Origin: a virus
Direction: 5' to 3' (one strand)
DNA length: 56,302 bases
UHGV virus genome: UHGV-0090450
Part shown: positions 326-44,907 of the stretch, one piece after another
Layout of the letters: every line of letters begins with the position of its first letter
Position numbering within the stretch: position 1 is the first letter of the stretch
Notes under the pieces: generated by a model
The model's input: only the letters and a program-made list of their open reading frames with translations
Databases searched by the model: none
What the model was told of the DNA's origin: nothing
Made by a program: the position numbers and the translations under genes

Positions 326-852
326 TTGCGTAACTCCGATAACTCGTTAAAACGTTCCATAAACATCCCGTAGGCCTGGCCCGGTGCCAGTGGAATCACG
401 TTGAACATCTCTGTTGCCGGGATGCCTTCCAGTACAGGCCAGAAAGAGCCATCATCAAGCCCGAGATCGCGGCGTTCGGTTGCCAGCATAATGAGATCGG
501 CATATTTCACTGGCGTGCTCATAACAGGAGGTAACCCGTATTTCTCACGGATTACGGCGTCTATTTTTTCTTCCATCCGTTTATAGTCAGGAAGAAGTCG
601 TTTCAGTGGTGCGGGGATGTCTTGGCAATATGCTTCTGTTGCATCATGCATTAAAGCTTCAAAAGCAAATTCCTGCGGCACCAGCTGGCTGCAAAGCACC
701 GCATGTTGGGCGACACTGTAGAAGTGTGAAAGATGTCCTGCAAAGCGACAGATATTTGAAAGGGAAATCGCGATATCGTTAATAACGATGTCGTCTTTAT
801 TTATCCTGTCATAATAAAAATGCTTCCCGGAAAAAGTTTTAATAAATGACAT
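316..852 (-). CDS. HD-domain phosphohydrolase (YfbR-like 5'-deoxynucleotidase family)
   Basis: His/Asp-rich HD-type motifs (FAGHLSHFYSVAQHA, LMHDATEAY); ATG for MSFIKT at 852 preceded by GGAG, track ORF extends to 879 via a GTG. Confidence 0.7.
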   Translation of the reverse strand: MSFIKTFSGKHFYYDRINKDDIVINDIAISLSNICRFAGHLSHFYSVAQHAVLCSQLVPQEFAFEALMHDATEAYCQDIPAPLKRLLPDYKRMEEKIDAVIREKYGLPPVMSTPVKYADLIMLATERRDLGLDDGSFWPVLEGIPATEMFNVIPLAPGQAYGMFMERFNELSELRKCA

Positions 853-1396
853 TTTGTTCTCCACGTATATGCGCTGCACCGCGCTGAATTCGGGTAAAAG
901 GAAGCCCTCACCGTCCGGCGATTATTGAGTCAATTACATTTCCATAAATGCCCCCGTAGGGGCGGTTAGTTTCTCCACAAAACAGAGAAGAACACCTGCG
1001 GTGGCAGCCGCCCGGATGGATTGGGTTATGAGCCCGTCGTCCGGTGATGCTCTTCTCTGTTTTGTAAAAAGGACGGTACCAGCCGGAAGCAAGGGTACAA
1101 GCTGGTACCGCCAGGACTACACACAGCATAAAGTTGTGGTGCCGGGCGCCTCCCGGTGCCTGGCGAAGGTTGCACACCAGGCGGGTGGGTATCCACAGAA
1201 GGTCGACTGTCAGCCTCAACCTTAACCCGCGTGCGCTGAGCCGCATTCACCACAACGCTAAGAATTCTCTCTGGTTGAAAATACTTAGCTGTTATGTGCC
1301 TGCTTTTAGCCACATCAGGCGAGGTGGACCTGGTTATTCCCCAACAACAAGGATTCGGTTAATCTGGTTATCCCCAACAACGCAAAAGGAAAAGAA

Positions 1397-1831
1397 ATGT
1401 CCGGTAATATCTATACGCTGTACAAATCCCACTGTGAAAATGTTGGAAAGTATCGGGGCATTGAAATCAGTGGGGTAGTGTCATCAGTCGAAATAAGCAA
1501 AGTTGAATCAAGGGCAACATTACTTACTCTTTTGGACCTCGTCTTACATGAGCACCGGAAGAAATTCGGCACTCCCTATAATCAGTTGAATGGGAAAAAG
1601 GCTCTGGTTCACCTTATTCTGATGAAGCATCACTGGATGCCAAAACAGATTAATGAGATGAAATTTGATGAACTTCTTCTTTCAATTCAGGATGAACTCA
1701 CACTTGATAAAATAAGCGTAACCGCCCAGAAATTTTTAGATTATCGAGACTGGAGATCACAAATTCATCACTTTGATGATTTTGACGAAAATGAATGGGA
1801 TCCTAATTTGTCTGCACAATATCTAAAGTAA
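1397..1831 (+). CDS. hypothetical protein (144 aa), immunity-region cargo
   Basis: Clean ORF preceded by AAAGGAAAAGAA and by two direct repeats GGTTAT(T)CCCCAACAAC; no recognised domain. Confidence 0.5.
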   Translation: MSGNIYTLYKSHCENVGKYRGIEISGVVSSVEISKVESRATLLTLLDLVLHEHRKKFGTPYNQLNGKKALVHLILMKHHWMPKQINEMKFDELLLSIQDELTLDKISVTAQKFLDYRDWRSQIHHFDDFDENEWDPNLSAQYLK

Positions 1832-2009
1832 CATCCTGTGATAAAACCGTGATTTCCTGATCCAGTTTTTTTAAGGAGTCTATTGTTTCCTGTCGATAAG
1901 ACAGCACTTCACGAAGCTGGTTTATAGCTGCCAGCTTCTTTGTCATCCACTCATAAATTTCCTCATCTGTGTAGCCAGGCGCGACGATTTTGGGTTCTGT
2001 TTTGTGCAT
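1803..2009 (-). CDS. hypothetical small protein (about 68 aa), first ORF leftward of the cI/OL region
   Basis: ATG (MHKTEP) preceded by GAGGAG; track ORF starts at an upstream TTG (2024). Confidence 0.4.
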   Translation of the reverse strand: MHKTEPKIVAPGYTDEEIYEWMTKKLAAINQLREVLSYRQETIDSLKKLDQEITVLSQDVTLDIVQTN

Positions 2010-2065
2010 TTCACATCTCCTCAAGTTATCAGTTACTTGTTGATGGGGACCAGATTGTTAAAGAG

Positions 2066-2092
2066 CTAAGCGTCCTGTAGGGCGCTTTTTTG
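2066..2092 (+). terminator. hairpin AGCGTCC-TGT-AGGGCGCT followed by TTTTTTGTTG
   Basis: GC stem plus T-run seen directly. Confidence 0.35.
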
Positions 2093-2257
2093 TTGCTAAC
2101 GAATCATCCTGGACTTCATATGCCCCAGGCGGCTACTTCGTGGGCGTCCTGCCTGTTCGTTTTTGACATTTACTGACTGCTTACGACACATGCACCGTGT
2201 TGCAACCAGATTTTGTTGTAATCCTGTAGTTGGTCTGGAACAAAAGATAAAATTAAA

Positions 2258-2293
2258 TTGCGAAATATGCAAGTGATGTTTGCGAAATATGCA
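2258..2293. promoter_or_regulatory. putative OL operators (two copies of TTGCGAAATATGCAA)
   Basis: Two 15-bp copies 21 bp apart, same TTGCG-N5-xGCAA pattern as the cI/cro intergenic sites. Confidence 0.5.
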
Positions 2294-2302
2294 AATTTAT
2301 AG

Positions 2303-2330
2303 GTAATAAAAAGCCACCTTTCGGTGGCCG
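2303..2330 (-). terminator. rho-independent terminator immediately downstream of cI
   Basis: Minus-strand reading gives GCCACC-GAAA-GGTGGC followed by TTTTTATT, right after the cI stop. Confidence 0.5.
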
Positions 2331-2348
2331 ATGGATGGGATATTGAGG

Positions 2349-3041
2349 TTAATTATGTCTCTTAAGGGTTTGCGACTGACTGATTAAGACCTTTCCAAAG
2401 ACCATGAATCGGTGTTCGTTTTCGCTAGTAATTCCCCATTCACGGTAAATCTGGTTATCAGAAATCACCAGCAGTTTGTCAGGAATCATTTGAAGTCTTT
2501 TAACGTATATTTTGTCATCAAAACCAAAGACATATATACCATCACCATCAAACTGATTGATGCTGACATCAACGAAGATGAGATCTCCTGGCTCAATGGT
2601 TGGACACATACTGTCCCCACGAACGTTGATAACTTTGATGTGATTGGCTGGTCGTCCGCCGAACATTGATACAGCATTATCAGTTCTGTATTCGATGGCA
2701 TGAATCACATCAATGACATCACCGCCCTGGATAAGGCCATTTCCCGCACTGGCACTGATATCCAGCATTTCAATACGGAACACATCCTTCACCTGCGCAA
2801 CATCCTCATTATTACTGTTTTTATATACAGTATTACTTTTGTGGGCAGAGGTAAAGAGATCAGCAATATCAACACCTAAGCTCTTGGCAATATTACTCAG
2901 TGTTTGTTCGGTAAATTGTTTTTGCTTACCCGTTTCTAAGCGCGAGATGTTCGCCGCATCTACTCCTATTGCTTCAGCGAGATCGGCGATTTTCATGTTC
3001 TTCGCTTGGCGAAGTTGTCTGACTCGGTTTCCTATGTTCAT
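2349..3041 (-). CDS. cI: CI-like repressor (HTH_XRE N-terminus + S24 LexA-like peptidase C-terminus)
   Basis: N-terminal HTH (IADLAEAIGVDAANISRLETGK), C-terminal GDSMCPTI and KR motifs typical of autocleaving repressors; divergent from cro. Confidence 0.9.
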   Translation of the reverse strand: MNIGNRVRQLRQAKNMKIADLAEAIGVDAANISRLETGKQKQFTEQTLSNIAKSLGVDIADLFTSAHKSNTVYKNSNNEDVAQVKDVFRIEMLDISASAGNGLIQGGDVIDVIHAIEYRTDNAVSMFGGRPANHIKVINVRGDSMCPTIEPGDLIFVDVSINQFDGDGIYVFGFDDKIYVKRLQMIPDKLLVISDNQIYREWGITSENEHRFMVFGKVLISQSQTLKRHN

Positions 3042-3138
3042 GCGTTTATTACATTTCTTTATTGCGTGATAAGCAAATCAACTTGCGCAAAATAATTGCG
3101 TGAAATAACATGCATAACGCGCAATATTTGGAGGACAT
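3042..3138. promoter_or_regulatory. OR operator/divergent promoter region between cI and cro
   Basis: Repeated TTGCGTGATAAGCAA, TTGCGCAAAATAA, TTGCGTGAAATAA, ACGCGCAATA half-site motifs in a 97-bp intergenic region. Confidence 0.7.
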
Positions 3139-3399
3139 ATGCAATCACCATTACGAAATGTGCGTAAGGCGCATGGTTTCACTTTGCAGCATGTTGCTGC
3201 GGGTGTTCAAGTCAATCCAGCGACGTTGAGTCGTATTGAGAGGCTGGAGCAGATTCCATCTATCGAGCTTGCAGAACGTTTAGCCAATTTTTTTAAGGGT
3301 GAAGTCAGCGAAATGCAGATTCTTTATCCGGCACGTTTTCAATCTAGCCAAAACCAGAATGGGTTTAAACCACAGGAACAGGAGGTGAACCGTGGGTAA
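3139..3399 (+). CDS. cro: Cro-like HTH regulator
   Basis: Small HTH_XRE protein (TLQHVAAGVQVNPATLSRIER) divergent from cI, RBS GGAGGA. Confidence 0.8.
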   Translation: MQSPLRNVRKAHGFTLQHVAAGVQVNPATLSRIERLEQIPSIELAERLANFFKGEVSEMQILYPARFQSSQNQNGFKPQEQEVNRG

Positions 3400-3949
3400 G
3401 CATCACTGGAAAGTAGAAAAACAGCCTGAGTGGTACGTGAAAGCTGTCAGAAAAACTATCGCAGCGTTGCCGGGGGGGTACGCTGAAGCTGCTGACTGGC
3501 TGGATGTAACAGAGAACGCATTATTTAACCGCCTTCGTGCCGATGGCGATCAGATTTTCCCGCTGGGATGGGCAATGATTTTGCAACGTGCTGGTGGAAC
3601 TCACTTCATTGCTGACGCTGTGGCGCAGTCTGCAAATGGCGTCTTTGTGTCTCTTCCTGACGTCGAGGATGTGGACAACGCCGATATTAACCAGCGTCTG
3701 CTGGAAGTCATTGAACAGATCGGCAGTTATTCAAAACAGATTCGTTCAGCAATCGAAGACGGTGTAGTGGAACCGCATGAGAAGACAGCAATTAACGACG
3801 AGCTGTATCTCTCAATTTCGAAGCTGCAGGAGCATGCAGCACTTGTCTACAAAATTTTTTGCATTTCAGAAAGTAATGACGCCCGCGAGTGTGCAGCTCC
3901 GGGCGTCGTGGCGTCGATTGCTTCTGGTTGTGGAGAAACTAACGCATGA
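3392..3949 (+). CDS. hypothetical early regulatory protein (position of cII/YdaT-like genes)
   Basis: GTG start after AGGAGG; position after cro; family not recognised with certainty. Confidence 0.45.
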
Positions 3950-4304
3950 ACAGTTTAACAACACACTACCGTCGCTCGCAACTGATTGCGCTTCCTGTAC
4001 CGGGTGGAAAAGCGAAGGTGGAATATTGCTATGCAGTGAATGTACCAGGTGACAGGGAAATTGTAACCCACAGCTTTGCAGAGTGGGCTGTGGGTGATTT
4101 CAACCGGCAGAAGGAGACAGTCCTTTGCGACAAGTTAACCGCTGGTTCAAAGATCACTACGGAGTGCCCGTCAGAGTCATTCGTTGGGAGCCGGAAACAC
4201 AACGGGTTATCTACCTCCGCGAAGGTTATGAGCATGAATGCTTCAGTCCGCTCGAACAGTTTCGTCGTAAATTCAGGGAAATAGAGGTCGGTCATGAGCA
4301 CTAA
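3946..4304 (+). pseudogene. hypothetical protein, apparently frameshifted (N-terminal part in frame of 3946, protein-like C-terminal part in -1 frame ending 4304)
   Basis: Frame of 3946 ORF becomes Ser-rich noise after about residue 60 while the overlapping frame from 4098 to 4304 reads [44 protein letters not shown] with no ATG. Confidence 0.35.
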
Positions 4305-5220
4305 ATTAACCGGCTATGTATGGGATGGTTGCGCTGCATCAGGCATGAAGTTATCCAGCGTGGCAATTATGGCCCGCCTGGCTGATTTCAGTAATGACGA
4401 AGGTGTGTGCTGGCCATCAATTGAAACCATTGCCCGTCAGATTGGCGCGGGGATGAGTACCGTCAGAACGGCTATCGCACGGCTGGAAGCAGAAGGCTGG
4501 TTAACGCGTAAGGCGCGTCGCCAGGGTAACCGCAATGCGTCGAATGTTTATCAGCTTAACGTTGCGAAGCTTCAGGCAGCGGCATTTTCTCAACTGTCAG
4601 ATTCTGACCCGTCAAAATCTGACGCATCAAAATCTGATGCGTCGAAATCTGGCAAAAAAGCGGGTTTTCACCCGTCAGAATCTGGCGGGGATCCGTCAGT
4701 AAAATCAAAACATGATCCGTCAGATAAAAAACCTTCTCGTCCGGACGCTTCGCAACCGGACACGCAGACGGCTGAACAGGATTTTTTAACTCGCCATCCT
4801 GATGCGGTTGTATTCAGCCCTAAAAAGCGCCAGTGGGGAACGCAGGATGATTTGACCTGCGCACAGTGGCTCTGGAAAAAAATCATCGCCCTGTACGAGC
4901 AGGCCGCCGAATGTGACGGCGAGGTGGTTCGTCCCAAAGAACCGAACTGGACAGCCTGGGCAAACGAAATTCGCCTGATGTGTGTGCAGGATGGTCGTAA
5001 TCATAAACAAATCTGCGAGATGTACAGCCGCGTCAGTCGCGATCCGTTCTGGTGCCGTAACGTGCTCAGCCCGTCGAAGCTGCGGGAAAAATGGGATGAG
5101 CTTTCCCTGCGCTTATCGCCGTCCGTCAGCACGTACACCGAAAAACGCGAAGACCCGTACTTCAAATCCAGTTACGACAACGTGGACTACAGCCAGATCC
5201 CGGCAGGATTCAGGGGGTGA
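4294..5220 (+). CDS. replication initiator (lambda O-like: N-terminal winged-helix, repeat-rich linker, C-terminal domain)
   Basis: N-terminal HTH (VRTAIARLEAEGWL), DPSKSDASKSDASKSG repeats encoded by DNA iterons, position after cro/cII-like genes. Confidence 0.7.
   Translation: MSTKLTGYVWDGCAASGMKLSSVAIMARLADFSNDEGVCWPSIETIARQIGAGMSTVRTAIARLEAEGWLTRKARRQGNRNASNVYQLNVAKLQAAAFSQLSDSDPSKSDASKSDASKSGKKAGFHPSESGGDPSVKSKHDPSDKKPSRPDASQPDTQTAEQDFLTRHPDAVVFSPKKRQWGTQDDLTCAQWLWKKIIALYEQAAECDGEVVRPKEPNWTAWANEIRLMCVQDGRNHKQICEMYSRVSRDPFWCRNVLSPSKLREKWDELSLRLSPSVSTYTEKREDPYFKSSYDNVDYSQIPAGFRG
4596..4745. repeat. iterons inside the O-like gene (probable phage origin)
   Basis: At least 6 copies of CCGTCA(A/G)AATCTG(A/G)-like units in direct orientation, as in lambda ori within O. 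Confidence 0.6.
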
Positions 5221-5711
5221 TCATGAGTCTGTTAAATGACGTTCAGAAATTCATTGAAGCCCATCCTGGGTGTACTTCCGGAGACATTGCGGATGCTTTT
5301 GCAGGTTACTCACGGCAGCGCGTTCTGCAGTCTGCAAGCAAGTTACGTCAGAGTGGGCGTGTGGCTCACCGTTGTGAAGGAGATACACGCAGACATTTCC
5401 CGCGCCTGACTGAGAGAGCGCAGGAGCCGGAACCACAACCAGTTCGTGAAACCAGACCTGTGCGCAATTTCTATGTCGGCACTAACGATCCCCGGGTGAT
5501 TTTGTGCCTGACCCGCCAGGCTGAAGAACTGGAGTCAAGGGGCTTATACCGTCGTGCTGCAACCGTGTGGATGGCGGCATTCCGTGAAAGCCACTCCCAG
5601 CCAGAACGAAACAATTTTCTGGCGCGTCGTGAGCAGTGCTTACAGAAAAGCAGCAAGCGCGCTGCATCGGGTGAAGAGTGGTATCTGTCAGGGAATTACG
5701 TGGGGGCGTAA
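5217..5711 (+). CDS. PerC-family transcriptional regulator-like protein
   Basis: Motif ELESRGLYRRAATVWMAAFRE matches the PerC signature; translationally coupled to neighbours. Confidence 0.55.
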   Translation: MIMSLLNDVQKFIEAHPGCTSGDIADAFAGYSRQRVLQSASKLRQSGRVAHRCEGDTRRHFPRLTERAQEPEPQPVRETRPVRNFYVGTNDPRVILCLTRQAEELESRGLYRRAATVWMAAFRESHSQPERNNFLARREQCLQKSSKRAASGEEWYLSGNYVGA

Positions 5712-6037
5712 TGACGACGTTAACTCAATGCCAGCAGCAGGTGCTGGATATGCTGATTTCTTATCAGAAAGAGCGTGGCTTTCCGCCAACCAATCAGGAG
5801 GTGGCAACCATGCTGGGATACCGTTCGGTGAATGCAGCGGTGGAGCATCTTCGCGCACTGGAGAAAAAAGGCCTCATCACGATAAAGCGTGGCGTGGCAC
5901 GGGGGATAACGCTTCATACCGCTGTGAAGGACGACGACAGCGAGGCGGTCGGGATTATCCGCGCACTGCTTGCCGGTGAGGAAAACGCCAGGCTGCGTGC
6001 AGCCCACTGGTTACATGAGAGGGGCCTGAAAGTATGA
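5711..6037 (+). CDS. LexA DNA-binding-domain-only protein (no S24 peptidase domain)
   Basis: LTQCQQQVLDMLISYQKERGFPPTNQEVATMLGYRSVNAAVEHLRALEKKGLITIKRGVARGITL aligns closely with the LexA N-terminal domain as recalled; ATG at 5711 overlaps upstream stop (TAATG); track ORF begins at 5678. Confidence 0.7.
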   Translation: MTTLTQCQQQVLDMLISYQKERGFPPTNQEVATMLGYRSVNAAVEHLRALEKKGLITIKRGVARGITLHTAVKDDDSEAVGIIRALLAGEENARLRAAHWLHERGLKV

Positions 6038-7241: not shown

Positions 7242-8237
7242 GTGACCGTGAGAGCACTACTGACCCCTGAAATTGCCCCGCGTATGGGGATCGTATTGTT
7301 CAGACCAGGTTCAGAGCTGATGCCCTTGTTTATGCAGGGGCGTGTCCTGCTGGAGCCTGAGCCGGAACGTTATTCATCTTTCGCCAGTGGTGCCGTTCCG
7401 GCGGCATCACAACCGCTGGCGGATGATCCTGCCGTTCGGGCCGTGTTCCGCAATGAGGCAGTGATTCGTCGTGCTGGTGGAGTGGAATGTCTTGAAAGCT
7501 GGTTACTTCGTGAAAAAGGCTGCCAGTGGCCTCATTCCGACTGGCACAGCGAGAACATGACCACAATGCGACACGCGCCGGGCGCAATCCGTCTGTGCTG
7601 GCACTGCGATAACCAGCTGCGCGATCAGTTCACGGAACGGCTGGAATCAATGGCAACGGATAACTGTGCCCGCTGGGTGTTGTCTGTTGTGCGTCGGGAT
7701 CTCGGTTTTGATGATAGTCACGCTGTGACAATGCCGGAACTGTGCTGGTGGCTGATTCGTAATGACCTGGCGGGTGCCTTACCGGAAAGTGCAGCCCGTA
7801 AGGCACTGAGATTACCGAAGCCTGTTGTGCCGTCTGTCACCCGGGAAAGTGACCTTGTGCCTTCGGTTCCTGCCACCAGCATCATCCAGGATAAGGCAAA
7901 AAAGGTGCTGGCGCTGAAAGTGGATCCGGAGTCGCCGGAGTCTTTTATGTTACGCCCAAAACGTCGCCGCTGGGTTAATGAAAAGTACACGCGCTGGGTT
8001 AAGACACAGCCGTGTGCATGTTGTGGTAAGCCTGCTGATGATCCCCACCACCTGATAGGCCACGGTCAGGGGGGAATGGGTACAAAAGCGCATGACCTCT
8101 TTGTGTTGCCTTTGTGCAGAAAGCATCACGACGAGCTGCATGCGGATACCGTGGCATTTGAAGAGAAGTATGGCTCCCAGCTGGAGCTGATATTTCGTTT
8201 TATCGATCGTGCGCTGGCAATTGGCGTGCTGGCCTGA
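7242..8237 (+). CDS. DUF968-like nin-region protein with C-terminal Cys/His cluster
   Basis: C-terminal CACCGKPADDPHHLIGHG...PLCRKHHDELH. Confidence 0.55.
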   Translation: MTVRALLTPEIAPRMGIVLFRPGSELMPLFMQGRVLLEPEPERYSSFASGAVPAASQPLADDPAVRAVFRNEAVIRRAGGVECLESWLLREKGCQWPHSDWHSENMTTMRHAPGAIRLCWHCDNQLRDQFTERLESMATDNCARWVLSVVRRDLGFDDSHAVTMPELCWWLIRNDLAGALPESAARKALRLPKPVVPSVTRESDLVPSVPATSIIQDKAKKVLALKVDPESPESFMLRPKRRRWVNEKYTRWVKTQPCACCGKPADDPHHLIGHGQGGMGTKAHDLFVLPLCRKHHDELHADTVAFEEKYGSQLELIFRFIDRALAIGVLA

Positions 8238-8239
8238 TT

Positions 8240-8608
8240 TTGCGGAGAAAGTTGATGCGTGATATGTATGAAGTTTTGGACCGCTGGGGGGCATGGGCTG
8301 CTGCAGAAAACAGTGGTGTGGACTGGCAACCGGTAGCTGCTGGCTTCAAGCGGCTTTTACCTCATGGCAGAAAGTCCCGGATTCAGTGCGATGATGATGA
8401 GGGCATCATAATAGACGGTTGTGTCGCTAGGTTGCGTAAATACAAGCCGGCAGAGTATGAGCTGATAATTGCTCACTTTGTTGTTGGCATTTCGCTCCGT
8501 ACAATTGCAAAGAAGCGGAAATGTTCAGACGGAACAGTACGAAAAGATATGCAAACAGCTATGGGGTTTATTGATGGCTGTTTGTCATTTTTTTATTTAA
8601 TACAATGA
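8240..8608 (+). CDS. late-gene antiterminator Q (small Q family)
   Basis: VLDRWGAWAA N-terminus and overall pattern of small Q antiterminators; located after nin-like genes and upstream of lysis module. Confidence 0.7.
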   Translation: MRRKLMRDMYEVLDRWGAWAAAENSGVDWQPVAAGFKRLLPHGRKSRIQCDDDEGIIIDGCVARLRKYKPAEYELIIAHFVVGISLRTIAKKRKCSDGTVRKDMQTAMGFIDGCLSFFYLIQ

Positions 8609-8687
8609 GTTAAGTGCTATGTAAAATCATTCTACTTTCCCAACTTTTATGTGTATATAATACCAGGGTAAAGTAACGGAGAATCTT

Positions 8688-9728
8688 GTGAACATTCAAG
8701 CAGTAGACATTTTTTGTGGCGCAGGGGGCTTAACTTTTGGGCTAAAAAAAGCCGGGATTGAAGTTTCTCATGGCATTGATATTGATGAGTCCTGCCGTTT
8801 CGCTATTGAGAGCAATAATCCCTTAACGAAGTTCATTAACCAGTCAGTTACTGAACTGCAATCCAGCGATGTGTCTGCTATGTTCAAGGAAGGAAATATT
8901 AGATTACTTGCAGGCTGTGCCCCTTGCCAACCGTTTTCCAAGTATCGTAATCCAAATAGCAGAAAAGATGATACAAAGTGGCGTCTTTTATCTGAGTTTC
9001 AGAGGATTGTAAGTGATGTCATGCCAGAGCTTGTGACTATGGAAAATGTTCCTCAACTTAGAAATCATAAGGTTTTTGAAGAGTTTGTTAGTGTATTAAA
9101 GACTCTTGGGTATCATCTGTGGTACGACGTTGTAAAATGTTCCGAGTATGGCTTGCCTCAAAATAGACGTAGATTAATTCTAATTGGGTCCATATTGGGG
9201 CCAATCAGCCTTGATCAAAAAAAAGTAAGCCGTAAAGTTACAGTAAAGGATGCTATTGGTCAGTTGCCAAAAATAGGTGCAGGGGAGAAACTCGAAAGTG
9301 ATCCATTGCATCGTTCGCCTAAATTAAGGGATATTAACCTTAAACGAATCTTGCACTCTTTACCAGGTGGTACGTGGGATGATTGGCCTGAAGAAATTAG
9401 AGCGGATTGCCATAAAAAGCATTCAGGTGCTACCTATAAAAGTGTTTATGGACGGATGGTTTGGGACGATACTAGTCCTACAATAACTACCCAATGTTAT
9501 GGATATGGTAATGGGCGATTCGGACATCCTGAGCAAAATAGAGCAATAACTTTGCGTGAAGCTGCTATTTTACAATCTTTTCCTATGGATTATAAATTTA
9601 TTGGAAAAAATACGCCTTTTTCATTCCAAAAGTTAGGAACGATGATTGGTAATGCTGTTCCCCCTATAATTGGCCAAGTAATAGGGAGAACATTTGTTAG
9701 GCATGTTGAGGGGATAAATATCCGTTAG
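8688..9728 (+). CDS. DNA (cytosine-5) methyltransferase
   Basis: Motif I FCGAGG, motif IV GCAPCQPFS, ENV, QNRRR, C-terminal GNAV; GTG start; AT-rich relative to phage backbone. Confidence 0.9.
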   Translation: MNIQAVDIFCGAGGLTFGLKKAGIEVSHGIDIDESCRFAIESNNPLTKFINQSVTELQSSDVSAMFKEGNIRLLAGCAPCQPFSKYRNPNSRKDDTKWRLLSEFQRIVSDVMPELVTMENVPQLRNHKVFEEFVSVLKTLGYHLWYDVVKCSEYGLPQNRRRLILIGSILGPISLDQKKVSRKVTVKDAIGQLPKIGAGEKLESDPLHRSPKLRDINLKRILHSLPGGTWDDWPEEIRADCHKKHSGATYKSVYGRMVWDDTSPTITTQCYGYGNGRFGHPEQNRAITLREAAILQSFPMDYKFIGKNTPFSFQKLGTMIGNAVPPIIGQVIGRTFVRHVEGINIR

Positions 9729-10386
9729 AGATAATATAATCTTCAGTTGAGTTTATTAATAAACGAAGATATAGATCAACTCTCTCTGCTCTAGACTTAA
9801 CTTCTTCTAAGGGGTCAATTTGCCCCTTTTTAGAGAAGCTAGTACTTCCATGCGCGAGTTCGTTTCTGATATCCTTAAGCAAGTCTAAGTCAATACCATT
9901 TCTACATTCAGGTGAGTTTGCGATAGTTATTCCGTAAGCCTGCGTTATTTTGTGTAATACAGGCTTGCAAACATTACCATTGAATTCTTTACGAATATTC
10001 AATGAGGCTGAAATTATTCTTTTGGAAATGTCAGTGCCTATCTTTTTATAAAGGGATTGCCCTGTTTCATTATCTGAAACAATTCTATGTAATATATTTA
10101 CTTGAAGCTTCTCCCTGAGTGATGCGTAATTCACATCATTATCTTGTAAATGATCATAAATTGACTCGATGCAACCTCTGGCAGTATTTTCAACTTGATT
10201 ATATAGCATCATATGAACGGATGATTTTAAAATATTTACCCTTAGGATATTAGATTCTATTTCATCTTGATGCGCTTGCGGATCTAACTGCTGAGTATGA
10301 ATCTCTATAGATGATGCAAGAGAAAGCAGTTCCATAATGTCTCTTGCTCTTTCTTCATATTCATCTCGTAAATCAATTAGACTCAT
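9697..10386 (-). CDS. HEPN-motif protein (R-x4-H: RNELAHG), putative nuclease partner of DUF262 protein
   Basis: Rx4-6H motif near C-terminus; start 2 nt after DUF262 stop; 3' end overlaps the methyltransferase 3' end by 32 bp. Confidence 0.55.
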   Translation of the reverse strand: MSLIDLRDEYEERARDIMELLSLASSIEIHTQQLDPQAHQDEIESNILRVNILKSSVHMMLYNQVENTARGCIESIYDHLQDNDVNYASLREKLQVNILHRIVSDNETGQSLYKKIGTDISKRIISASLNIRKEFNGNVCKPVLHKITQAYGITIANSPECRNGIDLDLLKDIRNELAHGSTSFSKKGQIDPLEEVKSRAERVDLYLRLLINSTEDYIISNGYLSPQHA

Positions 10387-10388
10387 TT

Positions 10389-11549
10389 TTAAATCCCTAA
10401 CAACTTATTTTTAACGTAAAATATTCTGTTTTTTAGCTGGCTGGTATTGTTTGCACTATCAGCAGTAACAAGTGTTTCAAATTCCTCTTCAAATAGCCAT
10501 TCACCTACAGGTACGGCTGGACTCTGGAGTTGTGGGTTAGTTTTTAATGCAAGTGCAGTTCCCACGGCAATGGCTTCGTATCTGGCTCGTGGGGTGGTTT
10601 TACTTGTTGCGGTCTTTTTAAAGCCAATAGGGAAATGGGCAGCAACAAAAGCAAGCATCATTTCAAAATCATGTTTAAAATTATCAACATCTTGTTGAGT
10701 AGTCACAGCTGCTGCTTGTTCATTTAAATAATTATCAATAAAGGGACGGACAAATCCCTTATAGTTTTCTAAATCATTTAAATATGCAAAAAATCTCAAA
10801 ACTAACTCACGATGATCGCCATTCGACCGTTTCCGGTCTGATAATGGAGCTAGTTGGGAAAAAAGTGAGTTTGTTGAGCATGGGGTCACAACATCTTTAT
10901 AGAACATTGAGGTAGCAGCATCTGAGCCATGCCTCACTTCCATCGCTTCTAATCTTTTAACACCTGAGTTGATCCTTTCAAATAAATCTCTTCTATGTTG
11001 TTCCTCAACATCACCTTTCAACTCAATAAATCTTAGTGAAGCTCTTAAAAATCTTCTTTGGCGGCTAGCTAAAAGATCTGAAAATTTGAAACCTTCTAAA
11101 CTTTTAAGCTCTTTCAAATCCTTTAACTCAAATTGATCGTTCCAAAAATAATAAATAGAGCGTATCCGTTGTGAACCATCAATGATTTCTACCCTACCAT
11201 CTAATTCAGGGTCTTCATTAAATACATCAGCAATGTAAAGGTAAGGTATTGGAAAGTCTAATAGAATACTTTCTATAAAGCGAGAGGCTGTTTTTGTATC
11301 CCACTTGTAATCACGTTGATAATCTGGAATAAAAAGCTCGTTTTTGTCATTTTCAATATTATCACCATACTTTTGAATAATGACTTCAACGGTCCACTCA
11401 CGTACATTGTATCCAATGTTTCTCTGAGCGAGTCTGATTTCATTGTCAGCGGAAGCGGTTAAAGCTGCAATTTCAGCCTTTTTTCTGTTCTTAGCGTGTT
11501 CATCTTGTATCTGAGCAAGCTCTTCTTTGAGTTCTTTGAGTGTAGTCAT
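10389..11549 (-). CDS. DUF262 (ParB-like/GmrS-like) domain protein
   Basis: IPDYQRDYKW and DGSQR motifs diagnostic of DUF262; no DUF1524/HNH domain in the same polypeptide. Confidence 0.8.
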   Translation of the reverse strand: MTTLKELKEELAQIQDEHAKNRKKAEIAALTASADNEIRLAQRNIGYNVREWTVEVIIQKYGDNIENDKNELFIPDYQRDYKWDTKTASRFIESILLDFPIPYLYIADVFNEDPELDGRVEIIDGSQRIRSIYYFWNDQFELKDLKELKSLEGFKFSDLLASRQRRFLRASLRFIELKGDVEEQHRRDLFERINSGVKRLEAMEVRHGSDAATSMFYKDVVTPCSTNSLFSQLAPLSDRKRSNGDHRELVLRFFAYLNDLENYKGFVRPFIDNYLNEQAAAVTTQQDVDNFKHDFEMMLAFVAAHFPIGFKKTATSKTTPRARYEAIAVGTALALKTNPQLQSPAVPVGEWLFEEEFETLVTADSANNTSQLKNRIFYVKNKLLGI

Positions 11550-11565
11550 GTTTTCGTTCCTTTAA

Positions 11566-11594
11566 TTGAAAGTTGATTGTAAGAAAACTATAAC
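11566..11594 (+). promoter_or_regulatory. sigma70-like promoter (TTGAAA-17-TATAAC), candidate late promoter PR'
   Basis: Hexamers and 17-bp spacer seen directly; followed about 60 nt later by a terminator hairpin, upstream of the holin gene. Confidence 0.3.
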
Positions 11595-11649: not shown

Positions 11650-11680
11650 AAACCCGCCATCGAGCGGGTTTTGTCGTTTC
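11650..11680 (+). terminator. rho-independent terminator (AAACCCGC-CATCGA-GCGGGTTT + T-rich), tR'-like
   Basis: Perfect 8-bp GC-rich stem plus TTTTGTCGTTT. Confidence 0.5.
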
Positions 11681-13508: not shown

Positions 13509-13538
13509 AAGCCATCGATGAATCATCGATGGCTTTTT
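13509..13538 (+). terminator. rho-independent terminator (AAGCCATCGATG-AATC-ATCGATGGCTT + TTT)
   Basis: Perfect inverted repeat followed by T-run. Confidence 0.55.
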
Positions 13539-13550
13539 AATTGGAGATTT

Positions 13551-13901
13551 ATGCCCCCACGAACCCCAAAAGCCTGCCGTGTTCGCGGCTGCCGCTCTAC
13601 AACCACGGACCCTTCAGGCTATTGCGAAAGCCACAAAAGCGAAGGTTGGAAGCAATACAAGCCAGGACAATCCCGTCATCAGCGCGGTTATGGTTCGAAA
13701 TGGGATGCTATCCGTGAACGTGTGCTGAAGCGTGACAAAGGCCTGTGTCAGTTATGTCTGCGTGCTGGTGTGGTGCGTGAGGCGAAAACCGTTGACCACA
13801 TCATCCCTAAAGCGCATGGCGGCACAGATGCCGACAGTAATCTGCAGAGCCTGTGCTGGCCGTGTCATAAGGCGAAGACGGCCCGTGAACGGCTGAAGTG
13901 A
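13551..13901 (+). CDS. HNH endonuclease (terminase-associated)
   Basis: Cys-rich N-terminus, DHIIPKAHGGTD...N...LCWPCH; ATG at 13551 with GGAG RBS; track ORF begins at 13518. Confidence 0.85.
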   Translation: MPPRTPKACRVRGCRSTTTDPSGYCESHKSEGWKQYKPGQSRHQRGYGSKWDAIRERVLKRDKGLCQLCLRAGVVREAKTVDHIIPKAHGGTDADSNLQSLCWPCHKAKTARERLK

Positions 13902-33005: not shown

Positions 33006-34073
33006 TTAATGAAATTTATCTCGGATGAATTGTTGCGATGGCTTTTCAATGAATATATATGACATATAGCTAATTGCCATTAATGTAAGCATGAATAAAA
33101 TGAATACCTTGGGGCTGTAAAAAAGATCGCGTCCATAGCCAATCTTGTCAGCTAAATAAACAACAATGATTTGCAAAGGAAAATGTAAAAGATAAGATGA
33201 ATAACTGATATCACCCAACCATTCAATTTTCTTCCCAAAATCGTTTCGTATTGCGCTAATTGATACAAGGAAAAAGATTATGGAGGTAAATCCGAATAAG
33301 ATAATTGAGAATATATCTGCTACTTGCAGGGTAAAGATAACTCCCCATGAGATCAATAGAAAAACACAAGCAAAAATAAAAAATAATTTTGCGCTAATAT
33401 TTTTTATGACCGCAATCGTAATTTTATAGGTCAGACCACCAATAAAGAAAGAGAATGCGCCGATCATTATGGGATTGTTAATTTTGAAAAAGTAGTACGA
33501 CAATGCAACTATTAAAATTGATATGAATGTTGTTTTTGATGTGAACTTGCATAATATAAAAAATATCATGTACATAAGTACTTCAATCGACACGGACCAT
33601 GTCGGGGCGTTGAAGGACCAACCTCGCTCAAATCCCCATGATTGAATCATCAATAAATTCAGAATGGCATGGTAAATGTCATTCATAGGATAAACAAAAA
33701 AATAATTATGACTTTTAAAGAAAATAATTTGTAATATTGCCACGACAGCAAATGTAAATATATAAAGTGGATATAATCTACTGACACGGTTAACTATAAA
33801 AGTTTTTGCTGAGGTTTTATTGCTGTGTATATTGTCAGCGTATAGATAAAAAAATATGAATCCAGAAATCATAAAAAACAATTCGACAGCATATAAACCG
33901 TAATGATAAAAAACGGAAAAAAATTCATAAAAAGGTTGGCGGTTTATGATTATGTCAGATGCAGCATTCTTTTTCATAAAAAAATGTTGCCAATGCCATA
34001 ACACAACGGAAAGTGCGGCAAATCCTCTCAGAACATCCAGGGTATATATTCTCTTCCCAAAAAAATTCGTCAC
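33006..34073 (-). CDS. acyltransferase family 3 integral membrane protein (O-antigen acetyltransferase-like)
   Basis: About 10 predicted TM helices; N-terminus LDVLRGFAALSVVLWHWQHFF; very AT-rich. Confidence 0.85.
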   Translation of the reverse strand: MTNFFGKRIYTLDVLRGFAALSVVLWHWQHFFMKKNAASDIIINRQPFYEFFSVFYHYGLYAVELFFMISGFIFFYLYADNIHSNKTSAKTFIVNRVSRLYPLYIFTFAVVAILQIIFFKSHNYFFVYPMNDIYHAILNLLMIQSWGFERGWSFNAPTWSVSIEVLMYMIFFILCKFTSKTTFISILIVALSYYFFKINNPIMIGAFSFFIGGLTYKITIAVIKNISAKLFFIFACVFLLISWGVIFTLQVADIFSIILFGFTSIIFFLVSISAIRNDFGKKIEWLGDISYSSYLLHFPLQIIVVYLADKIGYGRDLFYSPKVFILFMLTLMAISYMSYIFIEKPSQQFIRDKFH

Positions 34074-34623: not shown

Positions 34624-35493
<870 letters not shown>

Positions 35494-36032
35494 CTAACCC
35501 TTTGAATTTACATAGCGCAAAAAGATACCTTTCCTCATAATGTGAGCTAATTTTATGTTTCGTTTGATGATCGGATCGGTCTCGAAACCCGTAGCCACGT
35601 CGTATGCAAGAACGTGCTACGACTGGCTGGTGAACTTCCGATAGTGCGTGTATTGAATGATTTCCAACTGTTATCGATTTTGCGTATTTTTTGCATGAGA
35701 GGATTTTTACCTCCTCCCACCGATCCTCCATGGCTTTACGCCAGTGTCTCTGGTCTGCTATGTGCCAGAAGCGGAAGTTCCCACTATTATGCTCTGCATC
35801 GATACCGGGAAGGTACTTAAGTCCCCCGGTATTCACTGATATTATCCTCCAGCTACCGCAATGCCGCCCAATCTGGTATGGCTTAGCTAGCCAAGTAACT
35901 GCTGGCAGAAAGGCCTCTTCAAGCATACCATCCGGATTTACCGATGAGATTTCCCATCCAGCACGGAAATGATACTTTCTACTGACCCCAGATTTTTACT
36001 AAGACAATAAAGATACTGGATTCAATGAGGGG

Positions 36033-38597
36033 TTATTTCATAAGAGTGCGCCTTGTTTTGATCTGATCACGCCATTCTTTTAACGTGCTTATATCCGCTC
36101 GCAGCTCCTTATACTCTGGTATAGAAGCTGGCATTTCCGTCGACTGGCTGTGCTCATAACAGCTGTATTTAGTCATGAGGCTTTCAATCAATTTACAGTC
36201 TTCTGCAGTTATATCCTGTACATACGGAAGCCTTCCGTCAGTCTGGATTCCTCTTCTATGACGTATAACTACCCCGTTAAATAAATCCTCCTCGACAGAG
36301 CGCTCAATGAGTTTACGAAAATCACTGCAAACGCCCTGAGCTAGCCCACGGAAAGCTATTGCGCCATGTTCTTGTCCAGATTTGTAGGCTGAATCCAGCC
36401 TAGTCAGGAGAATGTTATTCGCTGATTTGGTATTCGCGTTCCAGACCTCCTGATCGGCAGGATGACCGGCAGCTCCATCAAATGATTCAATACATATCGA
36501 TTTATGGTGCTGCTTTTTCCATGGGTCTCCCTCTTTTCTTGCCAAATCTTCAATTACCCCGTAAAGGGAAAGTCTGTGCGTTAAAATAATCACCTGACGC
36601 GATTTAGCGAGTTCAACGAGGCGTTTAGCAACTTGCCACTCAAATTCGTGGTCCAGAGATGAAATAGGGTCATCAAAAATGAAGGGAGCAGATCCCGGCC
36701 GATCAGTGACATCGGCTAAAAATGCAGCCAGTGAGATAATCCTACGTTCTCCTTCACTCAGAACATTGTGCAACTTGTCCCGTTGCGCTCCTTTTAGCTG
36801 TAGCTGATGCAAAACTTTCGCATTTTCTGTCCTTATTTTCACAAGCTCAACCTGCAAGCCAGGAGCACCAAGAACTTTCAGCTCACGGTTGAATCTGGCG
36901 GCATAGGCTTCAGTGACAACTTTCTGAGTAATATCAGCAGATTTAGTTGATAATGCACGGGAAGCGGCAAGTGATATCCATTCATCAAATTCACTTCTTT
37001 TTTTTAAGCGTTCAACTTCGGCTCTGATAGCCTCGGCTTGACCAGATAACCACCGTCGAGCTTCGGCTTCGTTTTTATTCTGCAAAGCTTTGGCCCTGTC
37101 AAATCCTGCTGCATCTCTCTGAAACTGGTCGGCTTCTCCCTGAAGCCGGTCGCGGTAAGTACGTAAATTCGTGATAGCTTCGGTCAAATCAGCCAAAGGA
37201 ACTGCTGTCTGGGTAGCTTCATGCTCGGTGAGCGCCTGACGACTGAGGGATGCGGAACTCCATATTCCCGTTAGGTATTTATTCCATTCTTCCTGAATCG
37301 CAGCGCTTGCACAAAGGGTAGCAATTTCGGCCATTGAGGGAGGAATAGTTATCGAGCCGATTGCCTGAGCATACAGACACTCAGCTGTGGCAGCATCGCT
37401 CTCAAGACGTGATTGCACGAAAGCCTCAAGATTGTTCAGACGCTGCTGAGCTTCTGCGGATAGAGCCTGATTGCATAAAACACAACAGGCCTCATCTGTT
37501 GCCGGAAAAGCCTTGTCTGGATAGGGCGTCCTTGAATAGTCGCGAGCAGCTTCCCACATGGCACGCCATACAGGTGAGCCAATGCCCTCCAGTGAGTCAT
37601 CTTTTATTCGTTCACTATCAAGCGCAATTCTGCGCTTGCTGATGCTATCAGCACGTAACGCCCGAAGACAGTCGATATTTGACTGGCTAAAAGTCTTTGC
37701 CGTCTGCTCAAGTTGAGTGATGATCTGATTAACAGATGTTTGAACCGCAAGCTTGTTGCGGGCGTTCTCAGCCGGATCTTTAACGTTCAGACGTTCATTC
37801 AAGGCACTAAGCGCTTGCTCATCCGCCTCAGACCAGTTTGTCATCACTGCGATATTTTCGGTAGTTGCTGTACTTAGTGCACTATAGGTAGTGGCAATAT
37901 GACAACGCTGATAAACAGCAGGTAGTTCGGGAAGTTTGCTGACTAGCTGAGACTGTTCATCCCTTAGCTTATCGCGTACCAGTTTCAGGTACTGGGCCAG
38001 TTTTTCAAAAAGCCCCACCACACTCGGTATATAGGTAGCGGCACTCTCTTGGGTGAGATAATGCAGAGATTCATCCGTATCGAAGATATCAATGCCTTTC
38101 AGGGCATCGATCGGAGGGCTGTCAGCTGACCAGTCCGCTTCAGCATTGCTTTCATTCGCTTTCCATTTAATGTGGCAACTTCGCTCAGGTGGTAAGGGAT
38201 TAAAGACATTAGAGTTAAGCTGAGCTGCTCTAGGTTTTCCGGACATACGTTTGAGCACACGCGTATAGCTGGATTTACCGGACCCGTTATGGCCGTAAAT
38301 AACAGTCAGATTCCCTGAACCGAAATCGAGCGGTAAACGTGGAGCAAGGTTCTCAATACCCTTTACAGCTTCGATCCGACTTAACCTGAGTGTTCCAGAT
38401 CCCTGCTCTGCAGATGCTAGGCCTAGGAAAGTATGGTGTGTCGTTTTTGTTCGTCCATGGGGGGTCTTGAGTAAAGCAATAACCTGCTGAAGGTCATTAT
38501 CTGTCAGGTCATCCTGTTGAATGAGTCTTTCCGCTAGTTCCTGAAACCAGTCCTGCTGCTTTAACAGCCAGGCTATGATATCGGCCTTTACATCCAT
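36033..38597 (-). CDS. RloC-like ABC/SMC-type ATPase with coiled-coil insertion and CxxC zinc hook (AAA_13-like)
   Basis: Walker A VIYGHNGSGKSS, signature LSEGERRIISLAAFLA, Walker B FIFDDPISSLD, H-loop ILTHR, CVLC within the roughly 500-aa insertion; RBS AGGAGGG. Confidence 0.7.
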   Translation of the reverse strand: MDVKADIIAWLLKQQDWFQELAERLIQQDDLTDNDLQQVIALLKTPHGRTKTTHHTFLGLASAEQGSGTLRLSRIEAVKGIENLAPRLPLDFGSGNLTVIYGHNGSGKSSYTRVLKRMSGKPRAAQLNSNVFNPLPPERSCHIKWKANESNAEADWSADSPPIDALKGIDIFDTDESLHYLTQESAATYIPSVVGLFEKLAQYLKLVRDKLRDEQSQLVSKLPELPAVYQRCHIATTYSALSTATTENIAVMTNWSEADEQALSALNERLNVKDPAENARNKLAVQTSVNQIITQLEQTAKTFSQSNIDCLRALRADSISKRRIALDSERIKDDSLEGIGSPVWRAMWEAARDYSRTPYPDKAFPATDEACCVLCNQALSAEAQQRLNNLEAFVQSRLESDAATAECLYAQAIGSITIPPSMAEIATLCASAAIQEEWNKYLTGIWSSASLSRQALTEHEATQTAVPLADLTEAITNLRTYRDRLQGEADQFQRDAAGFDRAKALQNKNEAEARRWLSGQAEAIRAEVERLKKRSEFDEWISLAASRALSTKSADITQKVVTEAYAARFNRELKVLGAPGLQVELVKIRTENAKVLHQLQLKGAQRDKLHNVLSEGERRIISLAAFLADVTDRPGSAPFIFDDPISSLDHEFEWQVAKRLVELAKSRQVIILTHRLSLYGVIEDLARKEGDPWKKQHHKSICIESFDGAAGHPADQEVWNANTKSANNILLTRLDSAYKSGQEHGAIAFRGLAQGVCSDFRKLIERSVEEDLFNGVVIRHRRGIQTDGRLPYVQDITAEDCKLIESLMTKYSCYEHSQSTEMPASIPEYKELRADISTLKEWRDQIKTRRTLMK

Positions 38598-43424: not shown

Positions 43425-43742
43425 ATGTGTGCCGCGCTGGAGGCGTACCGGGCTGAACTGGGTAAAAACACACTCCAGCACCACTACACCACGGAAGCGA
43501 ACATGCTGGCGCGTATCGTGCTGGGTGGCATGACTGCAAAACAGTGGGCACTGGCGAACGGCATTACAGGCGAACCACGCGACCACATGAGCACGTTGCA
43601 GCTTGAGCACCTTTCTTACCTTGAGCAGAGCAATATCACGCTGATTGAGTTAGGCCAGGACTACCACCAGCGGAAGGCTGAATTAATTCGTCTTTCGCAG
43701 CGTTGGTTAGCCCGTCGCATGGAGGAAAACAGCCATGTGTAA
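43425..43742 (+). CDS. hypothetical protein (105 aa)
   Basis: ORF immediately downstream of antirepressor-like gene. Confidence 0.4.
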   Translation: MCAALEAYRAELGKNTLQHHYTTEANMLARIVLGGMTAKQWALANGITGEPRDHMSTLQLEHLSYLEQSNITLIELGQDYHQRKAELIRLSQRWLARRMEENSHV

Positions 43743-44414
43743 CGCTCTGACCGTTACAAAAAGAGAAAGCGCCCCGTTGCCGGAGCGCCTTTGTGAACGA
43801 ATAGCCTACTGCGCCATATTGCTTACTGTCTACGAGGCAGATTATAGCGTTGTGGTCGCACAGAGTGAAGGCGCTGATCACCGTTACTACAGCACGCCAG
43901 AAATGCAGAATATTTTGCTGCAAAATGTCGTTGGTCACACTGTCCGGAAAGCAAAAAATTTTGCTGGTGGCGCGACTGATGCGATTTTGTCAGGTCGCCA
44001 GGTGCTGATCAATCTGATGTCTAATTTCGTTCTGGATAAAACAAAGGCGACCGCAGAGGGCCACCAGTGGGAAAGCTACACACTTGAACACATCGCCAAC
44101 AATGCCAGATTTGCGGCTGGTGGGCAATGTGATCAGTGTGCTGGCTTGCTGGTGGGCTATTCCTGCTCTTTAACATTGCCATGCCGCGATGTTTTCCAGG
44201 TATGCGACCCCATTTTTGTGCGCCTGTACTCTTTAAGGAATTTCTCAAGGATAAACGCACAGGGCGCGAATCTGTCTGACTCATATTCGTACGCTATCTT
44301 TCTGCGCTGTCTTTTCCGTGCCGGTGATGGTGTATTGGTCGATTCTTTGTTGGTCATTCTGTGTACCTGTAAAGCAATGCGCCGGAGTTCCTCACACCAC
44401 GGCGATGATAGTTA

Positions 44415-44720: not shown

Positions 44721-44907
44721 GTGCATTCTCCTAAACAAAAGATGTGATTCAGTATACACAAAAAAGAATCACAAAAAATACTTGACCTGTGATTCAGTTA
44801 AATTTAATTTAAATCACACCTCAGTAAGAGGATATAAACGACAACGCCCCGAACTGTTTGCGGCAGTAGCGGGGCGTCTAACCAAACCGTTAAATGAGGT
44901 AACGATT

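Follow-up and report, generated by a model that had tools for sequence, protein, structure and literature searches.

A mobile three-gene cassette encoding a C5-cytosine DNA methyltransferase, a DUF262 protein and a HEPN protein in an Escherichia coli prophage, a probable phage-defense module

What are a DUF262 gene and a HEPN gene doing between the Q antiterminator gene and the lysis genes of a lambdoid prophage, and do the two of them make up the whole system? The question is raised by UHGV virus genome UHGV-0090450, of which one strand was analyzed over its full 56,302 nucleotides (nt; this whole stretch is called the window). A first-pass annotation made from the letters of the DNA had marked positions 9697-11549 as a two-gene operon and as a candidate uncharacterized restriction-like or abortive-infection system. 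The coupling of the pair stands, and the scope of that description proved incomplete: the two minus-strand genes belong to a cassette of three, the third being a C5-cytosine (5-methylcytosine, m5C) DNA methyltransferase gene that accompanies the pair wherever full-length relatives were found. The cassette forms an island of ~2.9 kb and 37% GC within a prophage of 52% GC, and is very probably a phage-defense module, judging from its resemblance in domain architecture to a validated system. Its parts are as follows.

8688-9728, plus strand: C5-cytosine DNA methyltransferase gene, 346 amino acids (aa), GTG start, convergent on the pair
9697-9728, both strands: 32 nt shared by the HEPN and methyltransferase genes at their convergent 3' ends, from the open reading frame (ORF) coordinates
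9697-10386, minus strand: HEPN gene of the MAE_28990 family, 229 aa, ATG start, predicted metal-independent ribonuclease (RNase) effector
9847-9867, minus strand: Rx4H catalytic motif RNELAHG of the HEPN protein (residues 174-180; R174 and H179)
10387-10388, minus strand: 2-nt spacer between the DUF262 stop and the HEPN start (TAA-AA-ATG)
10389-11549, minus strand: DUF262 gene, ParB/GmrSD_N-type nucleoside triphosphatase (NTPase), 386 aa, ATG start, predicted sensor/switch
11166-11180, minus strand: DGSQR motif of the DUF262 protein (D124-R128)
11301-11330, minus strand: IPDYQRDYKW motif of the DUF262 domain (I74-W83)

The two minus-strand genes lie next to each other at the 2-nt spacing first reported, and an AGGGA Shine-Dalgarno-like sequence stands upstream of the HEPN start at their junction. 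DUF262/HEPN junctions in related loci range from -4 to +6 nt. The 2-nt junction suggests translational coupling of the two genes and, together with its equivalents in relatives, a stoichiometric complex of their products. At the other end of the HEPN gene the 32-nt overlap with the methyltransferase gene leaves no space for an intergenic terminator.

The 386-aa protein matched Pfam PF03235 (GmrSD_N) over residues 66-206 (E=5.9e-26, 92 bits against a cut-off of 33), which was the sole domain detected; no DUF1524/HNH or other nuclease domain was found in it by Pfam. Residues P75, D76, Y77, Q78, R79, K82 and W83 and the complete DGSQR motif were invariant in 25 sequences, down to 53% identity. 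DGSQR is the family version of DGQQR, the nucleotide-binding/hydrolysis motif of GmrSD-type DUF262 domains (PMC10952713; 10.1101/2024.01.29.577857). From its N terminus onward the protein has a helical extension, the DUF262 domain and, at the C terminus, a helical domain of the NsnA 'ParBDB' type. Its top PADLOC match was NsnA (4.8e-45, residues 14-315), followed by PD-T4-2_A (PDLC04027; E=5.8e-27, residues 72-346 against profile positions 52-322 of 363), and a weak match was recorded to the Type II restriction endonuclease (REase) model PDLC03418 (E=7e-4). BrxU (7p9k) and SspE (6jiv) were the closest structural matches of its predicted fold.

The 229-aa protein matched PF18737 (HEPN_MAE_28990) over its full length at E=3.6e-17 (63.7 bits, cut-off 26.8) and, as a second Pfam match, PF18735 (HEPN_RiboL-PSP) at E=5.4e-8. 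A predicted structure supports the HEPN fold, with fold-level similarity to the HEPN toxins 5yep, 7ae2 and 8xdj, and R174, L177 and H179 were invariant in 21 HEPN sequences, down to 24% identity. Profiles, predicted folds and invariant motifs thus bear out the DUF262 and HEPN identities proposed at first pass, and the Pfam result bears out the absence of DUF1524/HNH. The HEPN protein belongs to a large family, with 1,906 representatives at E<=1e-3 after 50% clustering and 558 at E<=1e-30, and the best 150 relatives are all stand-alone proteins of roughly 205-260 aa. Biochemically characterized active HEPN domains are all RNases (PMC3710099), and by this analogy the target of the protein is probably RNA. 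The proposal that the nuclease module of GmrSD-type enzymes had been replaced therefore holds as far as the missing DUF1524/HNH and the HEPN partner go, while the target probably changes as well, from DNA to RNA.

Some E. coli genomes carry a HEPN allele of 192 aa (ending SFSKRGKLTP; proteins P0011, P0012 and P0016), which arises by a frameshift in an A5G4 run (window ~9823-9831, minus-strand TCT AAA AAG GGG) and which has lost the last core helix and kept the Rx4H motif. Its presence in three sequence variants suggests inherited or recurrent inactivation of the effector.

The 346-aa protein is a complete-motif methyltransferase: PF00145 matched at E=2.7e-54 (Pfam), the PADLOC models MTase_II and DrmMII at 1.2e-88 and 7.7e-85, and the TIGR00675 dcm superfamily at 1.8e-34. 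All catalytic motifs, read from an alignment to DNMT1 and M.HaeIII, are present, namely FCGAGG (I), PCQ with Cys80 (IV), ENV (VI), QNRRR (VIII) and GNAVPP (X); these two relatives in the PDB align over the catalytic core only, and similarity to E. coli Dcm is negligible (NCBIfam PRK10458, E=0.001). The idea that the enzyme is a Dnmt2-like tRNA methylase shielding tRNAs from the HEPN RNase was rejected as unsupported, because its best matches are bacterial Type II DNA methylase models and because Vsr accompanies the methylase block of one related locus (L011, below).

Linkage of the three genes was assessed in 63 loci (about 47 after removal of redundant ones), each encoding a full-length DUF262 relative and drawn from the neighborhoods of increasingly distant relatives and from scans with a DUF262 alignment; the sample is anchored on DUF262 relatives of at least 35% identity, and strict peptide patterns gave 12 genome loci. 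The alignment scans added 8 loci from GTDB genomes (including Actinomyces, Actinobacillus and Desulfobacterium) and 39 informative IMG/VR viral contigs, and further loci came from a P2-like coliphage, Moraxella prophages and a Klebsiella plasmid. Taxa carrying the trio are the Gamma- and Betaproteobacteria, Desulfobacterota and Actinomycetota, and at least four bacterial phyla are represented. In 63/63 loci the DUF262 gene is followed directly downstream by the HEPN gene, and this speaks for the functional coupling of the pair that had been proposed. A PF00145 methylase gene is likewise present in all 63, is intact in 62 (it is frameshifted in L068) and directly adjoins the pair in 62, lying 2 kb upstream in another operon in L011. 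DUF262 matches restricted to the N-domain (L021-L024 and L066) came without both partners and form a negative contrast. No ATPase gene was found in the related loci examined by neighborhood.

The pair and the methylase were also queried separately in 5,426 complete E. coli genomes, the comparison being one of genome counts and not genome by genome. Each query returned 107 genomes and 108 places, with two alleles in an identical 34/73 split, and a query with the whole cassette (at least 80% of it) returned 107 genomes, so that about 2% of complete E. coli genomes carry it. The second allele lies after Q in a different, Stx-phage-like prophage. The m5C methyltransferase is an invariant third component of the cassette.

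Gene order was analyzed in 60 loci. It was convergent, as in the window, in 56, DUF262-HEPN-methylase in two and methylase-DUF262-HEPN in two. The stop-to-stop overlap of the 56 convergent loci has a median of 32 nt (range -11 to 65) and measures at least 4 nt in 53 of them. In L010, L012 and L019 the trio is co-directional with overlaps of 4-14 nt, which implies co-expression.

The cassette is found inserted alone, as a ~2.9-kb unit whose GC content is 7-18 points below that of its flanks, in three prophage types, beside a Tn7-like element, between core genes, in a Type I hsd locus, between insertion sequences (IS) and on a plasmid; stand-alone insertion in such unrelated contexts is the behavior of restriction-modification (R-M) modules. 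Individual cases include lambdoid prophages of Yersinia and Salmonella bongori, a Tn7-like transposon that the trio adjoins in Pseudoalteromonas, sites between core genes in Vibrio cholerae, Photobacterium and Pseudomonas putida, an IS-flanked co-directional copy in Xanthomonas, and a methylase-first copy with overlapping genes in a Desulfobacteraceae metagenome-assembled genome. In L009 (1971-11155) the trio splits a Type I R-M locus, with hsdM-hsdS on one side of it and hsdR on the other, beside an integrase, an arrangement that parallels prrC embedded in the EcoprrI locus. In L011 (Rhizobacter fulvus, 680-5618) the pair has no adjacent orthologous methylase and stands beside a block comprising a distant m5C methylase, unknown ORFs of 297 and 85 aa, and Vsr; this block may be a conventional m5C R-M system onto which the pair has docked.

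The three components differ in how far they have diverged, identities being measured relative to the window proteins and at the far end of the family. The methylase, including its target-recognition region, levels off at 50-58% identity, while the whole DUF262 protein falls to 35-40% (N-domain 40-53%, C-domain 28-38%) and the HEPN protein to 18-26%. In L010, L011 and L015 the methylase has been replaced by one of another subfamily (24-32% identity) with the DUF262 protein staying conserved. In these three loci the replacement is always a C5-cytosine enzyme, never an N6 or N4 enzyme, and the conserved trait is therefore cytosine-C5 methylation itself. Such a trait fits a DUF262 domain, because characterized DUF262 relatives read cytosine or backbone modifications.

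How much of this had been described before? The three-gene association itself appears in Table 1 of Anantharaman, Makarova, Burroughs, Koonin and Aravind 2013 (Biol Direct 8:15, PMC3710099), a description by comparative genomics that occupies one table row, without experiment. The cassette is a member of that association: like the MAE_28990 HEPN/ParB(DUF262)/methylase operons it has a full-length PF18737 protein above the gathering score with an intact Rx4H motif, a PF03235 gene 2 nt upstream, and a PF00145 methylase gene overlapping the HEPN 3' end. The present analysis adds to the 2013 description a location in an E. coli prophage, linkage strictly to m5C methylases, the overlap of the convergent genes and figures for the different rates at which the three components diverge. 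PGAP names the E. coli genes 'DUF262 domain-containing protein', 'MAE_28990/MAE_18760 family HEPN-like nuclease' and 'DNA cytosine methyltransferase', and the PADLOC 2.0 models do not capture the trio as a system.

A relative at the level of domain architecture has been validated experimentally. PD-T4-2 ('DUF262, HEPN') of E. coli ECOR65 protects against T4 both natively and when cloned, and deletion at the native site restores T4 plaquing (Vassallo et al. 2022, Nat Microbiol 7:1568, PMC9519451). By HHpred, PD-T4-2A is PF03235 and PD-T4-2B (about 165 aa) is PF18735/PF18737; the cloned 1.8-kb fragment holds two ORFs and no methylase, and no toxicity was reported (PMC9519451). The two proteins, RCO39066.1 and the product of an unannotated ORF (ECOR65 contig QOYX01000002, pair at 338334-339873), were listed in neither of two homologue searches. 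Shared with the cassette are the two domains in the same gene order, the HEPN families PF18735/PF18737, and a match of the PD-T4-2_A model to the 386-aa protein, though NsnA scores higher. PD-T4-2 differs in the length of its two ORFs (1,540 bp against 1,853 bp here), in its shorter HEPN protein (about 165 aa against 229 aa) and in functioning without a methylase, whereas the cassette has an invariant one. Because E. coli is protected from T4 by this same domain pair (PMC9519451), the defense role suggested at first pass is plausible. With PD-T4-2 validated in 2022, the trio tabulated in 2013 (PMC3710099) and the genes named by PGAP, the word 'uncharacterized' was too strong.

Other known systems share single traits with the cassette. 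In Menshen (NsnABC; Millman et al. 2022) a ParB-DUF262 plus ParBDB protein has been proposed to sense phage DNA and drive an RNase effector (PMC12065111), and the 386-aa protein has this NsnA-like ParB-DUF262 and helical ParBDB architecture; membership was rejected since neither an NsnB ABC-ATPase gene nor an NsnC inPIN-effector gene stands beside the cassette, which has HEPN and methylase genes instead. In GmrSD, BrxU and SspE the DUF262 domain is an NTPase that senses DNA modification and governs a nuclease (PMC10952713; PMC12065111). The cassette shares their DUF262 NTPase domain and DGQQR-type motif (DGSQR here) and differs from these Type IV and phosphorothioate-sensing systems in having a separate HEPN effector in place of DUF1524/HNH and a methylase linkage that implies the opposite relation to modification; GmrSD-type Type IV membership was rejected on the absence of a DUF1524 nuclease and the obligate m5C methylase linkage. 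HEPN RNases in R-M operons have been proposed to mount a suicidal or dormancy response, PrrC-EcoprrI being the paradigm (PMC3710099). PrrC-EcoprrI shares with the cassette an NTPase-controlled HEPN-superfamily RNase tied to a DNA-modification system; it differs in that PrrC is an ABC-ATPase-HEPN fusion without DUF262 that depends on a Type I (Ic) complex, whereas the methylase here is of Type II style. As in Type II R-M systems, a complete-motif methyltransferase lies beside candidate restriction genes and moves with them as one unit, but no DNase domain was found in the cassette by Pfam and only the weak PADLOC REase_II match (7e-4) was obtained. HEPN-MNT toxin-antitoxin membership was rejected as well: the similarity is at the level of the HEPN fold only, and no MNT gene was found in the window region or in related loci.

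The reading preferred here, with a probability of about one in two, is that the cassette follows restriction-modification logic with an RNase as its output. The cassette, self-contained and horizontally mobile, rides in the prophage as a moron that separates Q from the lysis genes. Its methylase would place a mark on target cytosines in host and prophage DNA alike. The DUF262 protein, which has a helical C-domain of DNA-binding type, would read the cytosine-modification state of DNA and, on meeting the unmarked DNA of an invading phage or plasmid, would license its HEPN partner through an NTP-dependent switch. The activated HEPN dimer would then cleave RNA (tRNA, rRNA or mRNA), stopping translation and leading to abortive infection or dormancy. 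We infer methylation protection, DNA sensing by the DUF262 protein and RNA as the target from these parts, and the defense role from homology in architecture to PD-T4-2. The polarity follows from the methylase: a sensor triggered by m5C is unlikely because, co-transcribed with an m5C methylase as in L010, L012 and L019, it would be suicidal, and protection of self by methylation is a better fit because an m5C methylase is obligately co-inherited. The 'modification-dependent restriction' of the first-pass annotation, with a sensor attacking m5C, would be self-destructive beside an obligate m5C methylase and is unlikely. The fully specified version of the preferred reading, in which self and non-self are told apart on DNA by m5C and the response is made on RNA by HEPN under a ParB-type NTPase, that is, methylation-gated abortive infection, is offered tentatively.

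Several observations weigh against this reading. The DUF262 C-domain falls to 28-38% identity while the methylase target-recognition region holds ~50-57%, which is not the simplest prediction of a fixed DNA specificity shared by the two. Restriction enzymes typically diverge faster than their own methylases, which tempers the contrast. The DUF262 sensors known so far are triggered by a modification that is present and not by one that is missing. In Escherichia phage P2_4B2 (L068, LR595873), a P2-like phage whose linear record has the trio at one end, adjoining the replication-protein gene, the methylase gene (1994-3041) is frameshifted near residue 228 into ORFs of 234 and 136 aa with the DUF262 and HEPN genes intact; this is either a sequencing error or a tolerated loss of the methylase. 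Neither the window HEPN protein nor any of 21 family members matched the PADLOC PD-T4-2_B model at E<=1, so that the transfer of a defense role from PD-T4-2, membership in which was judged by PADLOC models, rests on domain-level similarity only. As PD-T4-2 works without a methylase of its own, a DUF262-HEPN pair has no intrinsic need of one (PMC9519451). Finally, no experiment on the three-gene form was found in the literature, subscription-only papers lying outside the search.

Among other explanations, the one that survives best is the two-pronged R-M system of Anantharaman et al., in which the DUF262/ParB-like protein is itself a DNase acting on unmethylated DNA, the methylase its cognate enzyme and the HEPN protein a separate suicidal RNase that is called on if restriction fails. 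Strict linkage to a methylase fits this scheme equally well, the weak match of the DUF262 protein to the Type II REase model PDLC03418 (E=7e-4) favors it, and so does the L009 trio inside a Type I hsd locus, placed like prrC in EcoprrI. With PF03235 as the sole domain detected in the protein and no nuclease domain found by Pfam, a DNase in this position is considered unlikely.

Rather less probable is a PrrC-like guard, in which methylase, DUF262 and HEPN proteins would form a latent complex and a phage counter-measure directed at methylation or R-M, such as a protein inhibitor or a depletion of S-adenosylmethionine disturbing the methylase, would unleash the HEPN protein. PrrC, EcoprrI and Stp provide the precedent of a HEPN RNase silenced by an R-M protein (PMC3710099), and both the obligate methylase linkage and the L009 trio embedded in a Type I R-M locus agree with it. 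The replacement of the methylase by distant m5C subfamilies (24-32% identity; L010, L011, L015) beside a conserved DUF262 protein makes a specific protein-protein latch hard to reconcile and a requirement for the enzymatic product easier, and in L011 the methylase is encoded 2 kb away in another operon.

The model of the first-pass annotation, a modification-dependent, Type IV-like pair to which the methylase would be an unrelated anti-restriction or orphan phage gene, is judged very unlikely. It can draw on the DUF262 domains of GmrSD and BrxU, which respond to modified cytosines, and on that of Dazbog, which has been linked to methylated DNA (PMC10952713); on PD-T4-2, which was selected on T4 with its glucosyl-hydroxymethylated DNA and needs no methylase; and on the frameshifted methylase of the P2_4B2 record. 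It has to contend with a methylase in 63/63 loci across four phyla and three gene orders, with equal counts of pair and methylase in the 5,426 E. coli genomes, and with displacement by m5C methylases only; chance hitch-hiking of the methylase is excluded because the linkage holds across loci, gene orders and displacements. With m5C as the trigger, the co-transcribed, overlapping versions in L010, L012 and L019 would moreover kill the cells that carry them.

Least credible of all is a module that serves mainly for addiction, stabilizing mobile elements by post-segregational killing, with defense incidental or absent: although the cassette is always found on or as a mobile element of foreign GC content, has an R-M-like architecture with the convergent overlapping genes typical of selfish R-M modules, and shows frameshifted HEPN alleles in E. 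coli consistent with a costly toxin, addiction does not exclude defense (classical R-M systems do both), the related PD-T4-2 in its native setting gives strong protection from T4, and the places where the cassette sits, in moron slots of prophages and in the variable region of P2, match known defense hotspots.

The setting of the cassette in the window was examined from its two edges.

8609-8687, plus strand: methyltransferase upstream region, directly after the Q gene (8240-8608), holding TATATAAT and a GGAG ribosome-binding site
11550-11583, minus strand: DUF262 leader with an AAGGA ribosome-binding site, at the right edge of the low-GC island

The first of these regions is a putative own promoter of the methyltransferase gene. 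Since promoter-like sites found in a promoter scan were not above the expectation from shuffled sequence (14 against 11.2), no promoter is claimed. On the right, phage-backbone homology to SfII, SfIV and Stx phages restarts at 11581-11584, ahead of the holin gene, so that the trio has Q, holin and lysozyme as neighbors; the host prophage is lambdoid and SfII/SfIV-like and is integrated at thrW-proA of E. coli. Megablast of cultured-phage DNA gave homology to the flanks only, and phage-borne relatives of the cassette were found by protein-level search. A strong hairpin at 11650-11671 (plus strand; AAACCCGC...GCGGGTTT followed by a T-run) stands between the cassette and the holin gene, inside sequence common to SfII, SfIV and Stx phages and hence phage backbone; it is probably the late-operon (tR'-like) terminator of that backbone, which would put the insertion point of the cassette between Q and the late promoter/terminator region.

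Other genes of the window were recorded in passing. In the early-right operon, a 119-aa protein just upstream of RusA (5678-6037, plus) has only a LexA-like N-terminal DNA-binding domain and is named 'LexA family transcriptional regulator' by PGAP in strain RX24. A DUF968 protein with a C-terminal HNHc_6 match (7242-8237, plus) lies just upstream of Q, and a small HNH endonuclease (13518-13901, plus) immediately precedes the small terminase of the P27 family, a pairing of HNH and terminase that is usual for packaging. At the prophage end, in an island of 31% GC, an Acyl_transf_3 protein (33006-34073, minus; E=7.5e-25) resembles a serotype-conversion moron of the O-antigen acetylase type, as is typical of SfII/Sf6-like phages. 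Just past that end is a second defense cluster (34624-35448, 35453-35926 and 36033-38597, all minus) with a full-length homologue of PD-T4-3 (GIY-YIG; PADLOC E=3.8e-140), an 854-aa AAA_13/SMC_N ATPase matching the PADLOC candidate PDC-S06 (1,059 bits) and, between the two, a 157-aa ORF without match. The stretch from 40370 to ~56302 may be an integrative element or a P4-like satellite, to judge by a second tyrosine integrase (40370-41584, plus) and a primase-helicase of the D5_N/DUF5906/Pox_D5 type (46559-48364); the large ORFs at 43735-45273, 49697-50839 and 54654-56252 (the last in DNA of about 31% GC) had no Pfam or PADLOC match.

In a family that is large, widespread and mobile, the strict need for an m5C methylase gives experiments a concrete point of entry to the way in which a ParB-type NTPase links the modification state of DNA to an RNase, and a mechanism would clarify the DUF262 sensors of GmrSD-, Menshen-, Dazbog- and PD-T4-2-type systems. 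For annotation, DUF262 plus HEPN pairs of the MAE_28990 type should be called with the methylase as one three-gene system. If methylation-gated abortive infection is indeed what the cassette carries out, it would explain action against phages that tolerate DNA cleavage, and relatives lacking a methylase, such as PD-T4-2, would use a resident host methylase, for example Dcm, for self-marking.

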